The notes under the pieces: model-generated
The model's input: the letters and a program-made list of their open reading frames with translations, nothing else
Database searches by the model: none
Told to the model about the DNA's origin: nothing
Assembly (NCBI GenBank): GCA_964624235.1
Contig: CAZUXY010000001.1
Location: 143,288 to 207,287 of the forward strand
Direction: 5' to 3'
Origin: an uncultured Leptospirales bacterium
Lineage (GTDB): Bacteria; Spirochaetota; UBA4802; UBA5368
Length of the DNA stretch: 64,000 nt
Shown here: positions 44,121 to 64,000 of the stretch, in pieces
Layout of the letters: each line of letters starts with the position of its first letter
Numbering within the stretch: position 1 is the first letter of the stretch
Program-made: the position numbers and the translations under genes

Positions 44121-44858
44121 CTATCGAAGCGCTTCCTTGGAAAACAGCGAATCTCTAAGCGGCATATTATAATCAACTGCTTTTATTATCAGTTCGGTCC
44201 GTCCTTTGCCGTCTCCCTGATGCATAACCGCTATGAAAGGAGTTAAAATCCCCTTAATTCTTTTTACATCATGGTTTTCAAGGTACTTGTGCAGTGATCC
44301 GTTCTTGTATATGTCAATACGCACAACGAAATAATCGGATTTTCTTACATACAGAATTGATTTTTCATAAACCCACTTACTTTGCTTCTTGACCGCCTGT
44401 ACCATGTAACAATCCGCACCGACCGCACTGCCGTCTCCAAGATATTTGTACTCATATCCATCAAGTTCCCTTGTTTCCAGGTCCTCATAGTAAAAATGGG
44501 AATTAACAAAGGGCTTGTCCTTATCGTCAGATATTATCCTTTTGACCTTCCCTGATGAAAGCATCAGCCACTGATCATCGTCTCTGCCCTTGTACGAATG
44601 GGTCAGCAGTTTAATCCTGGTGGGTTTGGTGAAAGAAATGAGTATCCGGTCGTTTCCACCTTGCTTTTTTGTCAGCATTTCCAGTTCTTTGACAGTGGTT
44701 CTTCCTCCCTTGACAATATTCATTGCAGCATTGCTTCTTCCGCTGTCCGGTTTGGAAAGCCTGTCGTTTTTTTCCATTATCTCACGCCCCGTAAGCGCAA
44801 AAACAGGAGAGATAGAAAAAAACAGAATCAATGCAGCGAGAGTTAGCATTCTTTTCAT
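44121..44858 (-). CDS. Outer-membrane lipoprotein-sorting (LolA-like) family protein
   Basis: Signal peptide MKRMLTLAALILFFSISPVFA and a 245-aa beta-rich sequence. Typical partner downstream of MMPL exporters. Confidence 0.6.
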   Translation of the reverse strand: MKRMLTLAALILFFSISPVFALTGREIMEKNDRLSKPDSGRSNAAMNIVKGGRTTVKELEMLTKKQGGNDRILISFTKPTRIKLLTHSYKGRDDDQWLMLSSGKVKRIISDDKDKPFVNSHFYYEDLETRELDGYEYKYLGDGSAVGADCYMVQAVKKQSKWVYEKSILYVRKSDYFVVRIDIYKNGSLHKYLENHDVKRIKGILTPFIAVMHQGDGKGRTELIIKAVDYNMPLRDSLFSKEALR

Positions 44859-59466: not shown

Positions 59467-59748
59467 TAAGGAATTTCCTGGTAGATTTTCGCGCGAGGAA
59501 CAAGGTAACCGGTCAATGGGGAATACCCGGCACGCTTAAAGAGCTTTTGAATCCTTAAAAAAATAACACACCGGTGTCAATAAAAAAAAGCAACTGTCCG
59601 ACGGTCGAAAGGTGAATTATCAGAGTGATTGTGTCGATTTGATTGTATATTTTTATTGATTTGTTCTGTCATGAGGATGATTCTGGGCATTAAAAAATTA
59701 TATGAAACCCCGTTATGTATAGAACAGTTTTTTCTGTTGAGGTTTATT

Positions 59749-60852
59749 ATGAGCCAGACGTTTGCACTTCCAGAATATCGGTCGCCAGATTTCAATTCTA
59801 AAGTTTTCAAGGACTGCCCGGTAGTCGGTTTCAAGGAAGCTGAATTCGATGGAGTTGCACCGGAGCATTATCATGCCACCTCCATTTACCCGGAGTATTT
59901 TCAGATAAAGCGTGGAGAATGGAAGCTGGCTGAATCTTCACGCATGGACTGTGTCGTTATATCAGAACACGGCATACTTAAAGCCGTGGAATTCAGGCAT
60001 ATAAAAAAGGGAGACCCGGTAATCGTAGGACGCACCGAAGATGGAGAAGAAGGAATCTATGTGCACACGACAGGATTCGCTCCTCCAGCGGAGTCACGGG
60101 AAAAATTTTCATTTCACACACGAAGAACCAGGGAAACACCATTTTCAAGGGATTATGACAGTATTTATGAATTACTGAAACATGAAAGAGAGATGGGCAA
60201 TATCGTCTGGATTTTAGGACCGGCGGTTACTTTTGATTATGATTCGAGAAAATCCATGACCGGTCTCATCGAAAACGGGTATGTTCACGCATTGCTGGCA
60301 GGAAACGCCCTCGCGGTGCACGATATCGAAGCATCCATGTTTGGAACGGGTCTGGGACAGGATATTTACACCAAGGAGTATCGCAGACTTGGACATTATC
60401 ATCATCTCGATGCCATTAATGCCGTTCGCAGATACGGTTCGATGAAAAATGTTTTTCACAAGGGACTGCTTCGCGATGGTATTATTTGTTCATGTTTGAA
60501 GAAACAAATCCCTTTTGTACTGGCCGGCTCCATAAGAGACGACGGTCCCCTCCCCGATGTCATTGGGGATGTGTATGAAGCACAGGACCGTATGAGGGCG
60601 GTATTGTCAAAGGCAACAACGGTGATAGCGCTGGCGACCCAACTCCATGCCATCGCTTCGGGGAACATGTTACCGTCGCACCAGGTGAGAGAAGGAGTAG
60701 TGCGTCCGGTTTACTTTTATATAGTCGACATATCGGAATTCGCCCTGGATAAACTTGCGAATCGCGGCAGTCTCGAAGTGCGCGGCATAGTAACAAACGT
60801 GCAGGATTTCCTGATCAATGTAAGCAGGGCTCTTACTGAGGGCTCATCATAA
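59749..60852 (+). CDS. Conserved hypothetical protein (about 367 aa from the RBS-supported ATG)
   Basis: GAGG RBS 6 nt before the ATG at 59749. The track's TTG at 59629 adds a hydrophobic extension without an RBS. No motif recognised with confidence. Confidence 0.5.
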   Translation: MSQTFALPEYRSPDFNSKVFKDCPVVGFKEAEFDGVAPEHYHATSIYPEYFQIKRGEWKLAESSRMDCVVISEHGILKAVEFRHIKKGDPVIVGRTEDGEEGIYVHTTGFAPPAESREKFSFHTRRTRETPFSRDYDSIYELLKHEREMGNIVWILGPAVTFDYDSRKSMTGLIENGYVHALLAGNALAVHDIEASMFGTGLGQDIYTKEYRRLGHYHHLDAINAVRRYGSMKNVFHKGLLRDGIICSCLKKQIPFVLAGSIRDDGPLPDVIGDVYEAQDRMRAVLSKATTVIALATQLHAIASGNMLPSHQVREGVVRPVYFYIVDISEFALDKLANRGSLEVRGIVTNVQDFLINVSRALTEGSS

Positions 60853-61003
60853 TTAATTATATATTCACCTTTTCTTCATATTCCCTTCAGCCGCTTTCTC
60901 CATTATTCGTTACGGTAACAACCGCCGGTATAAACCTTTACTGAACCTGTAGACGGGTACAGGACAAAGCGTTTACGGTTAATTATTTAAAAGGGGTATG
61001 TGT

Positions 61004-61879
61004 ATGGACCTTAATCAGCAAAATACTAACTCTAGTCCCAGAGAGAACCGCACTTCGATCGGTGCCATTATAACCAGGCCTTACCTGATGGCAATAAACA
61101 GATTTCAGGTTAAAATCAAACTGTTTATAGAAAAGGAGGATTTCATTATTAAAACCGCCGAGAACGATTTTGAACTGGAGCAGGTTCTAAGACTCAGACA
61201 TGATGTATTCATCAGGGAACTGTTGAACAAAAAGAAACTGTTCGGGATCGACATCGACAAGTATGACATGCTTTGCGATCACCTGCTGGTTATTGAAAAA
61301 AATACCGGAGCCTATGTAGGTACATACAGATTGAATTCAGACCTGTATTCGGACTGTTTTTATTCCGAGAAGGAGTTTAATCTGGGAACCCTTATGAATG
61401 TGCCGGGCCTGAAACTGGAGATTGGAAGGGCGTGTATACGCCGGGATTTTCGTAAAAGCAATATGATGGGCCTGCTCTGGGAAGGAATATACGCGTATAT
61501 GGCCCTTATGAACGCCCGTTATGTATTCGGATGTTCCAGCATCATGACTACCAACATGATCGAGATCGCCATGGTTCACAAATACCTGGTCGACAACAAC
61601 CATTGCACTTTCGAGACGGGTGCATATCCGGTGAATAAATACAGGATCAAGGAATTCAACAAGTACCTGGATATGGTCGAAAAGATGAATATACACGAAG
61701 TATATATAAAGGCGGAGAAACTCATCCCGAGATTAATAAAAGATTATTTTAATTTCGGTGCAAAAATCCATGGTGAACCCGCTCTCGATAAGAACTTCCG
61801 TTGTATCGACGTGCTCACTATGCTCGATCTTCAATCCATGAATCACAGTTATAAAGACCAGCGGCTGACGGCGAAATAA
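61004..61879 (+). CDS. GNAT-fold N-acyltransferase of the OlsB / N-acyl amino acid synthase family
   Basis: ...LRLRHDVFIRELL...KYDMLCDHLLVIEKNTGAYVGTYRL... resembles the OlsB/Acetyltransf_5 core. The ATG at 61004 has an AAGGGG RBS at good spacing. Confidence 0.6.
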   Translation: MDLNQQNTNSSPRENRTSIGAIITRPYLMAINRFQVKIKLFIEKEDFIIKTAENDFELEQVLRLRHDVFIRELLNKKKLFGIDIDKYDMLCDHLLVIEKNTGAYVGTYRLNSDLYSDCFYSEKEFNLGTLMNVPGLKLEIGRACIRRDFRKSNMMGLLWEGIYAYMALMNARYVFGCSSIMTTNMIEIAMVHKYLVDNNHCTFETGAYPVNKYRIKEFNKYLDMVEKMNIHEVYIKAEKLIPRLIKDYFNFGAKIHGEPALDKNFRCIDVLTMLDLQSMNHSYKDQRLTAK

Positions 61880-62082
61880 TATCCCTCACCTCTCTTCATC
61901 CTCTGCGTGAGGATGAGGAGAGTTCCGTTTTCATACCCTCACCCATCTCATGTCTATTGCTTCAGCCTTGCCCCTCCTTTAATCTGAAACCGCACAAAAA
62001 ATACTTTATTTTATCATGTATTGCGGAAACAATGTTTTCTAAAAGACGCGGGACAATGTACACCGGATAAAGGACCCAGAAG

Positions 62083-63525
62083 ATGAAGCATCAGGGGATG
62101 ATTTTGCTTTTTGTATGCAATCTTGCGGTTACTAATGGGCTTTACGCGGAAGACCCCCAATCCCTCACCCGAAAGGGTATAGACCTCAGCGAAAAAAAAC
62201 AGTACAGCGAAGCGGCCAGAGAATTCAAAAAGGCGATTGATATCCACAACAATTCCTCGGCGAAATCCTATCACAACATGGGATGGGTGCTTGAACTTAA
62301 AGGGGAAACCGGAGAGGCGATAAAGCATTACGAAGAAGCACTGCGGAGAAATCCTTCACAAATCCCAACCTATGAGAGAGTGGGATACCTCTATTTCAAA
62401 ACCGGCGATTACGAAAAGGCTGTTGCCGCGGGCGAATATGTGATAAAGGTCGATCCGAAGAACCAGTCGGTAATACGATGGTTGCCCGAGGCTTACAAAC
62501 TAAAGCTGCAGAAGGAAATGCTCCTCGCCAGGAAACAGGAGGAGGAAAAAAAGAAACAGCAGGAAAAGCAAAAACCAGATGAAAAGCAGGAAAAGAAGGA
62601 AGAAAAAACCTCACGATTTTTATTCGCCACCTTCGACTTCATGCTCAGAACCGGTTACTATTTTGATGAGAACAAGTTCAAATACGTCGATACCGAAGGC
62701 CTTTACTCAAGTTTCCCTGAAATGCTGTATGTCAATATCACCCCCCTGCCGGCATGGGAGTTCGATCTTGCGGCAGGCCGTCCCTATCTGGGTGCGATGA
62801 CCCCCGATGTAATAATACATACTGAAACCCTTCAGGCCATGTTGCATATGGGCCCTTGGCATCTGGGCGCGGGCATTATGGGAAACCATTACCGCGATGA
62901 TTTCAATTTCGGGAAAAAATACGCGCTGACCGATTTTAAGGCCGGGGTCCTTTTCGGCGTAAAAAAAGAAAAATACACCACCAGGTTCGCCTTTTACCCC
63001 CGGTTCCTTCCCCATGACGGTCCGCAATCCAGCGGTAAATCCCTTGATGTGAGCATGTTCGAATTCAGCTATCACTATACGGTGGATACCGCACTGGGTT
63101 ACTATTCAAAAATTTCCGCCAAAGATTACTATTTCTTCAACCATACCGACAGGCGGTCCAATTACTACGGGGTTTACGATATCACCTTCGGTGTTTCACT
63201 GAACAGGCTTACCGAAGTTAAAAAGAAAAAATATTTAACTTTCATCCTGGAATTTACGGAAAGATTTTACCTTAGAAACCTCGACAATGACGACCCGTAC
63301 AGTCTGGCAAACGGGCAGGGACTTTTCGGCGCCGATGCCGATGGATGGTTCAGCGGGCATCCCTTTTCGGGCTTTTACACCCAGGGCCACCAGCTTTCAT
63401 TACGTGTTGAGGAGTGGTTGAACGCTTACCTGTTCCTCTACCAGTCATTTGTGTTCGAGATGGCCGGCACCAAAGGAGACCACAATGAATTCTCACTGCT
63501 TCTTGGTGTAGGCGGAAGCTACTGA
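62083..63525 (+). CDS. Outer-membrane protein: N-terminal TPR repeats, K/E-rich linker, C-terminal beta-barrel-like domain
   Basis: Signal peptide. Three TPR-like repeats. Linker KQEEEKKKQQEKQKPDEKQEKKEEK. C-terminal 330 aa with alternating aromatic/hydrophilic pattern, ending ...LLGVGGSY (terminal aromatic). Confidence 0.5.
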   Translation: MKHQGMILLFVCNLAVTNGLYAEDPQSLTRKGIDLSEKKQYSEAAREFKKAIDIHNNSSAKSYHNMGWVLELKGETGEAIKHYEEALRRNPSQIPTYERVGYLYFKTGDYEKAVAAGEYVIKVDPKNQSVIRWLPEAYKLKLQKEMLLARKQEEEKKKQQEKQKPDEKQEKKEEKTSRFLFATFDFMLRTGYYFDENKFKYVDTEGLYSSFPEMLYVNITPLPAWEFDLAAGRPYLGAMTPDVIIHTETLQAMLHMGPWHLGAGIMGNHYRDDFNFGKKYALTDFKAGVLFGVKKEKYTTRFAFYPRFLPHDGPQSSGKSLDVSMFEFSYHYTVDTALGYYSKISAKDYYFFNHTDRRSNYYGVYDITFGVSLNRLTEVKKKKYLTFILEFTERFYLRNLDNDDPYSLANGQGLFGADADGWFSGHPFSGFYTQGHQLSLRVEEWLNAYLFLYQSFVFEMAGTKGDHNEFSLLLGVGGSY

Positions 63526-63529
63526 CCAC

Positions 63530-64000
63530 ATGAATCTTGAAGAATGCCGGATTTTTACCGAGAAAGTTGCCAGGGACGCCGGGCCTATCCTGATGGGATC
63601 CTTCAGGTCGTCGAATATATCGGTATCCATGAAAAGCGCATCCGATCTCGTGACCAATGCAGACCGTGAATCGGAAGAGTATCTTGTAAACCGCATTCGC
63701 AGCCGATATCCCGACCACACGATCGTCGCCGAAGAGGGAAGCCGCATCGAAGGGCCGAAGGAATATATATGGTTCCTGGACCCGCTGGACGGGACCAATA
63801 ATTTTGCGCACGGAATCCCGGTGTTCAGTCTCTCCCTGGCGCTCTACTCGAGAAAAACCGGGAAAGTAATGGTGGGAGTGGTGTATGACCCTGTTCACCA
63901 TGAATTATTCAGCGCCGCCAGAGGAACAGGAGCATTCCTCAACTCCCGGGAAGTTACCGTTTCGAGTACTGTAACTCTGGAAAACTCGATACTCGCCACC
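63530..64000 (+). CDS. Inositol monophosphatase family protein (SuhB-like), N-terminal part
   Basis: ...VAEEGS...WFLDPLDGTNNFAHGIPVFSLSLAL... are IMPase motifs. Runs off the window end. Confidence 0.8.
   Translation, partial: MNLEECRIFTEKVARDAGPILMGSFRSSNISVSMKSASDLVTNADRESEEYLVNRIRSRYPDHTIVAEEGSRIEGPKEYIWFLDPLDGTNNFAHGIPVFSLSLALYSRKTGKVMVGVVYDPVHHELFSAARGTGAFLNSREVTVSSTVTLENSILAT

Follow-up and report, generated by a model that had tools for sequence, protein, structure and literature searches.

Proteins of the Slam (type XI) group combine a periplasmic tetratricopeptide repeat (TPR) domain with a 14-stranded beta-barrel. They have been reported only from Proteobacteria so far, and their cargo, which has a C-terminal 8-stranded barrel, is often encoded next door (PMC5449769, PMC8406197). 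The FadL family is defined by an N-terminal hatch or tail that threads the pore (PMC12611786). With regard to aminolipids, stand-alone PF13444 synthases are a known class, and for the OlsB family adjacency to olsA is usual but not obligatory (PMC11631085). OlsB homologs have already been noted as common in Leptospirales, with no lipid product reported so far, and the same 2026 review describes ornithine lipid synthesis as being under phosphate-limitation control and ornithine lipids as enriched in outer membranes (PMC12971839). Here, we analyzed a stretch of 64,000 nucleotides (hereafter, the window) from an uncultured Leptospirales bacterium (assembly GCA_964624235.1, contig CAZUXY010000001.1, positions 143,288 to 207,287), in which a gene for a GNAT N-acyltransferase is followed by a gene for a TPR-barrel protein. 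The initial annotation had suggested that the two are a dedicated pair for synthesis and outer-membrane translocation of an aminolipid. Our data argue that they are very probably not such a pair and are chance neighbors in one small lineage, and that the TPR-barrel proteins are an unnamed outer-membrane family restricted to Leptospirales-like Spirochaetota.

Gene order around the acyltransferase and TPR-barrel genes

To define gene order, one genome per species was scanned, which gave 57 loci with relatives, all from Leptospirales-type Spirochaetota. A full-length barrel gene was present in 52 of them, and 45 of these had at least 1.3 kb of upstream sequence. GNAT adjoined the barrel gene in 3 of the 45 (L002, L006 and L007), all of which had ~53% barrel identity and belonged to the closest clade, and no other scanned locus carried GNAT. 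Adjacency was seen only in the clade of the window (P0057-P0060, L002, L006, L007 and L090). L003 is a nearly equidistant relative, in which a cyclodeaminase gene is located directly 5' of the barrel gene and GNAT is absent; other genes occupy this position in L005. In the metagenome-assembled genome CAZPZJ01 (L091 and L022), GNAT and a partner gene described below were found on contig 65, whereas the barrel gene and a gene of the inositol monophosphatase (IMPase) family were on contig 295. Synteny between the two genes is thus lacking in relatives, an outcome that the initial annotation had itself listed as refuting the pairing. The features of the locus are as follows.

59749..60852, + strand: nickel-pincer-nucleotide-dependent ornithine cyclodeaminase variant, the upstream neighbor (NF052526, ArgZ-like_C_2nd)
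61004..61879, + strand: GNAT N-acyltransferase of the PF13444 (OlsB/FeeM/NAS) superfamily, 291 aa (Pfam, NCBIfam, homologs)
61890..61932, + strand: intrinsic-terminator-like element (hairpin scan, folding energy)
62083..62148, + strand: predicted signal peptide (aa 1-22) at the N-terminus of the TPR-barrel protein, with a cleavage site near LYA|ED (alignment, model helix 2-18)
62155..62451, + strand: periplasmic TPR domain of the same protein, aa 25-123, ~3 repeats (Pfam, alignment, model)
62464..62604, + strand: long K/E-rich helix or linker of the same protein, aa 128-174 (alignment, model)
62620..63525, + strand: modeled 14-stranded outer-membrane beta-barrel of the same protein, aa 180-480, and stop codon (model, alignment)
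63530..64000, + strand: 5' part of the IMPase-family gene, which runs off the window and encodes 261 aa on the full contig

Both open reading frames (ORFs) were present on the + strand where they had been annotated, and they are real genes rather than chance ORFs, because each has full-length homologs (42 for the barrel protein and 52 for GNAT). The intergenic gap between them is 203 nt. It contains a hairpin at 61890-61932 with a 14-bp stem (7 G-C pairs) and a 5-nt loop, followed by the T-rich sequence TTCCGTTTTC. The predicted folding energy was -24.9 kcal/mol (z=-5.3), and none of 200 shuffled sequences folded equally well. A crude promoter scan revealed no sigma-70-like site in the gap at 61923-62082, and region-wide matches were not above shuffled expectation.

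On its other side, the barrel gene had a much more constant neighbor. An IMPase-family gene was located directly downstream in 28 of 46 loci, and in 28 of 35 when only relatives of at least 30% identity were considered; the linkage was kept down to ~35% identity. In most loci, the distance from the barrel stop to the IMPase start was -4 to +5 nt (in the window, the start is 4 nt past the stop codon), which points to translational coupling. The IMPase-family protein, which is cytoplasmic, scored below the cutoffs of SuhB, HisN, FBPase and CysQ alike. Unbiased clustering of all neighbors yielded a conserved block composed of the barrel gene, the IMPase-family gene, a gene designated c2 and purA, in this order, with variable genes upstream. 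Other neighbors that recurred when the loci were viewed by eye coded for GmhA-like SIS, STAS, NuoB, MnmA, GGDEF and ATP-grasp proteins, which form no coherent guild.

The proposed pairing is unsupported because adjacency is restricted to so few loci, a terminator-like element separates the genes, and each of them has another conserved partner. In the initial model, a mono-acylated N-acyl amino acid is the product of GNAT, and the TPR-barrel protein is dedicated to its export at the outer membrane. This model is consistent with the window, three contigs with identical genes and L002, L006, L007 and L090, where the two genes adjoin each other on one strand, but these represent one clade; CAZPZJ01 and every other lineage show no linkage of the two genes. 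The barrel family was found in many genomes without a neighboring GNAT, and the GNAT family reaches Fibrobacter and Cloacimonadota, where no barrel homolog turned up. The structural closeness of the barrel to FadL-family channels, which carry hydrophobic molecules (PMC12611786), and the enrichment of ornithine lipids in outer membranes (PMC12971839) would fit export of an aminolipid; however, the strong terminator and the different conserved partner of GNAT do not. The exporter model is largely refuted by synteny, and we consider it highly improbable. An aminolipid synthesis-export module is not real on this evidence, and no new lipid-export system is to be claimed from the locus.

The acyltransferase and its usual partner gene

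The GNAT ORF spans 60998-61879. A better start is at 61004, because an AAGGGG ribosome-binding site occurs 7-9 nt upstream and homologs have 287-291 aa; the gene call on the same contig likewise gives 291 aa. The protein matched Pfam Acetyltransf_5 (PF13444) with E=9.8e-24 and 84 bits (cutoff 22.4), and it fell just below the cutoff of FeeM (PF21926; 26.1 bits, cutoff 27). No other Pfam family was detected at E up to 0.1, and the LuxI/autoinducer synthase model gave no match. The OlsB models aligned nearly end to end (GNAT aa 45-286, E=3e-33); for example, NF052555 aligned aa 49-285 with positions 23-266 of the 278 in the model. However, the scores against the two OlsB equivalog models were 115.4 bits for NF052555 (cutoff 320) and 110.5 bits for NF052554 (cutoff 350), and the OlsF and exosortase-linked acyltransferase models scored lower still. 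When the sequence was compared with PDB chains, FeeM included, no match was found at E up to 1.

These profile scores place the protein in the OlsB/FeeM superfamily of N-acyltransferases and indicate that it is neither a LuxI-type enzyme nor an ordinary acetyltransferase. It is not an OlsB equivalog, because it reached only about one third of the cutoffs. Thus, the annotated OlsB/GlsB/NAS type holds at the level of the superfamily and not at that of OlsB itself. PF13444 and the full-length alignment with OlsB models are features that GNAT has in common with OlsB, GlsB, OlsF and FeeM-type synthases. It differs from OlsB by its sub-cutoff scores and because it has neither an adjoining PlsC-type OlsA nor an OlsF-like fusion. 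In agreement with the initial annotation, no O-acyltransferase gene adjoins GNAT, whose neighbors in the window are the cyclodeaminase and TPR-barrel genes, and no PlsC/OlsA-type protein (PF01553) was detected among ten window ORFs of 200-350 aa.

We then examined GNAT homologs of 46-57% identity on their contigs. In eight of eight independent contexts, the homolog adjoined a gene for one conserved protein of 322-370 aa (typically ~345 aa), and these partner proteins were 45-65% identical among themselves. Their positions are given below, L084 standing for the context L084/85.

L084 8966-10009: GNAT partner gene
L086 8983-9951: GNAT partner gene
L087 6929-7975: GNAT partner gene
L088 6882-7928: GNAT partner gene
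L089 6895-8007: GNAT partner gene
L091 1127-2155: GNAT partner gene
L092 3210-4256: GNAT partner gene
L094 1393-2439: GNAT partner gene

The partner protein had only sub-threshold matches to alpha/beta-hydrolases, and neither the frames of the window nor the loci of the window's clade contained a counterpart of it. We also considered whether it could be a relative of the window's barrel domain, but this was rejected, as it showed no similarity to any window frame and appeared to be a weak alpha/beta-hydrolase relative. Several of the partner loci are located beside genes for Pst permease, PstS-like, PhoU, PHO4 and PhoBR-like proteins, and in three of them genes for a large GT4 glycosyltransferase and an alpha-amylase follow. 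The Pst/PhoU/PHO4/PhoBR neighbors fit the phosphate-limitation control known for ornithine lipid synthesis (PMC12971839). The GNAT of the window is therefore an orphan without the usual partner gene of its subfamily. The alpha/beta-hydrolase-like partner is a candidate for a non-PlsC second enzyme in a phosphate-limitation aminolipid pathway of Spirochaetota, and this by-product of the analysis may matter more for lipid biology.

The TPR-barrel protein and its family

The TPR-barrel protein (62083-63525) has 480 aa. It begins with a predicted signal peptide and has no conserved lipobox cysteine. TPR matches cover aa 28-128 (TPR_2, E=1.4e-17) and are followed by a K/E-rich linker. An invariant WLP[DE]AY motif (aa 133-138) lies 3' of the TPR domain. 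The last 300 aa had no match in Pfam or NCBIfam. The protein ends in ...GVGGSY, which follows the family pattern GxGGxY, and 34 of 42 family members have Y or F at their last position. The secreted protein with N-terminal TPRs, charged linker and aromatic C-terminal residue had been annotated correctly.

An AlphaFold2 model based on the 42-sequence alignment had a mean predicted local distance difference test score (pLDDT) of 87.5, with values mostly >90 in the C-terminal part. It consists of a signal helix, TPR helices (aa 25-123), a single long helix (aa 128-174) and a beta-barrel (aa 180-479). The pLDDT is <50 at aa 159-175, and the length of the helix differs between homologs. The barrel has 14 long strands, and short connections of 2-6 aa alternate with long ones. 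Short periplasmic turns and long outer loops are the classical pattern of outer-membrane proteins, and in the model the short turns would be periplasmic, the long loops extracellular and the N-terminus in the periplasm. Conservation of the long loops is unusually high, most of all in a 28-aa loop at aa 403-430 (NNDxPYxxxNGQGxFGxDxxxWFxGxPFSG), which suggests that they pack into the barrel lumen. A Foldseek search of the PDB retrieved outer-membrane barrels only, with BcsC, FadL and PelBC at E of ~1e-8 to 1e-9; the best template modeling (TM) scores per target were 0.56-0.59, to the 14-strand OmpG. The profile of the whole alignment detected only TPR proteins among PDB sequences and none that matched the barrel. 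The model thus agrees with the annotated outer-membrane beta-barrel and not with a soluble or alpha-helical protein.

The full-length search yielded 42 relatives with 36-100% identity (E 0 to 4e-87), all from uncultured Spirochaetota and, where their sources name them, called either tetratricopeptide repeat protein or hypothetical protein; beyond them, only the TPR region was matched. With the barrel alone as profile, a search of 1.84 billion cluster representatives detected 89 proteins, nearly all of which had 460-550 aa and a C-terminal barrel. Ten of the most divergent members were inspected, and the named ones were Spirochaetia and one Hydrogenedentota bin. Pfam barrel families matched none of 31 divergent members, and 15 of the 31 had TPR_Slam matches below threshold, as expected of generic TPR cross-matches. 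Named cultured spirochaetes, pathogens included, yielded no member of the family, and its immediate reach is limited accordingly.

Tandem duplicates of the TPR-barrel gene were observed in L034, L035, L038, L039 and L043, with copies 30-38% identical to the window protein. In the most divergent subgroup (L040-L053; Turneriella and Leptospiraceae metagenome-assembled genomes, 25-28% identity), the IMPase gene is not downstream, and its place is taken in most of them by the gene for a TPR-rich protein of ~300 aa that is secreted and conserved.

Neighboring genes

The upstream cyclodeaminase matched NCBIfam NF052526 with 583 bits (cutoff 440) and Pfam ArgZ-like_C_2nd with E=2.5e-67. Its ORF is open from 59629, and its start is likely near 59671-59749; the gene call on the same contig corresponds to 7589-8770 of L081. 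The location of this gene directly 5' of GNAT is lineage-specific. Relatives carry two extra genes between them (5842-8749 of L002, with equivalents in L007 and L090). One codes for a putative coiled-coil lipoprotein of ~250 aa, the other for a secreted protein of 713-731 aa. The latter had no Pfam match recorded (on L090), and its C-terminus (..TDFKIW) resembles an outer-membrane beta-signal. Ornithine was considered as a GNAT substrate on the basis of the adjoining cyclodeaminase, and was rejected as weak, since relatives have genes in between or no GNAT.

The c2 gene (12251-12970 of L081, on the same contig ~0.7 kb beyond the window end) codes for a secreted protein with a mature length of ~180 aa. 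Its family is found only in Spirochaetota (68 clusters) and has no Pfam match, and the place of c2 between the IMPase-family gene and purA is conserved. In addition, a LolA-like outer-membrane lipoprotein-sorting protein (PF17131, E=1e-38) is encoded at 44121-44858 on the - strand. Although unrelated to the two genes discussed here, it shows that the region codes for components of lipoprotein trafficking.

Possible roles of the two genes

GNAT may be an acyl-carrier-dependent synthase of N-acyl amino acids (lyso-aminolipids); in this lineage, it would have moved away from its usual partner, and its own transcript would end at the strong terminator. The TPR-barrel gene would be the first of a separate operon, followed by genes for the IMPase-family protein, a secreted Ig-like protein and PurA. 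Its product might place the 14-strand barrel in the outer membrane, with the conserved extracellular loops probably folded into the lumen as a gate, and the charged helix of ~70 angstroms would hold the small TPR domain out in the periplasm, where it may dock a protein partner. Such a protein would be a partner-gated outer-membrane channel or translocon with a Slam/type XI-like build on a FadL/PorV-like barrel, which is the mechanism that we prefer over the others. Architecture, fold, family limits and gene linkage are established by the data, the topology is deduced from the model, and gating, docking partner and substrate are inferred. We offer this account as a whole only tentatively.

[quoted passage not shown] A tether is disfavored by the low confidence of the helix at aa 159-175, by its variable length and by the absence of any OmpA- or Pal-type peptidoglycan-binding domain from the Pfam results. 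With regard to BAM, BamG-type proteins have been reported for the FCB (Fibrobacteres, Chlorobi and Bacteroidetes) superphylum and not for Spirochaetota, and BamG acts via an N-terminal tail that is missing here (PMC12611786); moreover, linked genes for BamA or BamD are absent. We consider a structural or biogenesis role a live alternative, though rather unlikely. Independent of whether the partner-gated channel is correct, the locus leaves an unnamed outer-membrane family that combines a TPR receptor domain with a 14-strand barrel and has a phosphatase gene as its constant partner, in a phylum in which outer-membrane biogenesis and surface-protein export are poorly understood.

Comparison with known outer-membrane systems

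The TPR-barrel protein had been likened to the polysaccharide-export porins BcsC and PgaA. As in BcsC, PgaA and PelB, a TPR region precedes a C-terminal outer-membrane barrel, but the analogy fails on strand number, as these porins have 16-stranded barrels and the model has 14. The porins also belong to polysaccharide synthase operons, whereas the TPR-barrel gene neighbors those for the IMPase-family protein, c2 and PurA. Judged from the model, the structure of the barrel places it in the 14-strand FadL/PorV class and not in the 16-strand BcsC/PgaA class.

The FadL family (FadL and TodX, as well as PorV and Bacteroidota BamG) has the 14-stranded barrel and structural similarity to the TPR-barrel protein. 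However, sequence identity is ~10%, and Toluene_X/FadL (PF03349) matched neither the window protein nor the 31 divergent relatives. The N-terminal hatch or tail is absent and is replaced by the periplasmic TPR domain and helix: in the model, strand 1 starts at aa 180, ~5 residues past the helix, and aa 1-174 are taken up by the signal peptide, TPRs and helix. The structural similarity would be consistent with a FadL-type uptake channel for hydrophobic compounds (fatty acids, aromatics), with the TPR domain passing the substrate on to a carrier in the periplasm. We regard this as rather unlikely, to the same degree as a structural or biogenesis role, given the lack of PF03349 and of the hatch that defines the family; moreover, genes of fatty-acid or aromatic catabolism are not consistently near the barrel gene, and FadL-family barrels also have non-transport roles (BamG, PorV).

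The closest architectural match to the TPR-barrel protein is Slam/type XI (Neisseria Slam1/2, Xenorhabdus NilB and HrpB), with the same order of signal peptide, TPR, linker and C-terminal 14-stranded barrel. The periplasmic TPR region of ~100-140 aa, the total length of ~480-500 aa and the occurrence of paralog duplication are also alike. This likeness is one of architecture, as no solved Slam structure was among the Foldseek matches for a comparison of barrels. Faint matches to TPR_Slam (PF24575) were observed in the family, with 16-18 bits in two members and a best E=3.7e-6 (cutoff 35.2 bits), whereas DUF560 (PF04575) matched neither the window protein (E up to 0.1) nor the 31 divergent relatives (E up to 0.01). 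The phyla differ as well (Proteobacteria for Slam, Spirochaetota for the TPR-barrel family), and the TPR-barrel gene has no adjoining cargo gene, whose product would be a lipoprotein or a soluble protein ending in an 8-strand barrel. The c2 protein was considered as a Slam-type cargo and rejected, since its modeled fold is a generic Ig-like beta-sandwich. Thus, Slam/type XI is the nearest known system, yet the TPR-barrel protein is not a member of the Slam family.

By analogy, the TPR-barrel protein may work in a Slam-like way, and this mechanism, taken alone, is possible but doubtful. A more specific and clearly improbable version is that the family is a spirochaetal counterpart of Slam/type XI, which originated independently on a FadL/PorV-like barrel and acts as an outer-membrane translocon whose periplasmic TPR domain receives proteins or lipoproteins and hands them on to the cell surface. 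If true, no earlier system of this kind would be known outside Proteobacteria, and it would offer a clue to how surface proteins of spirochaetes reach their location.

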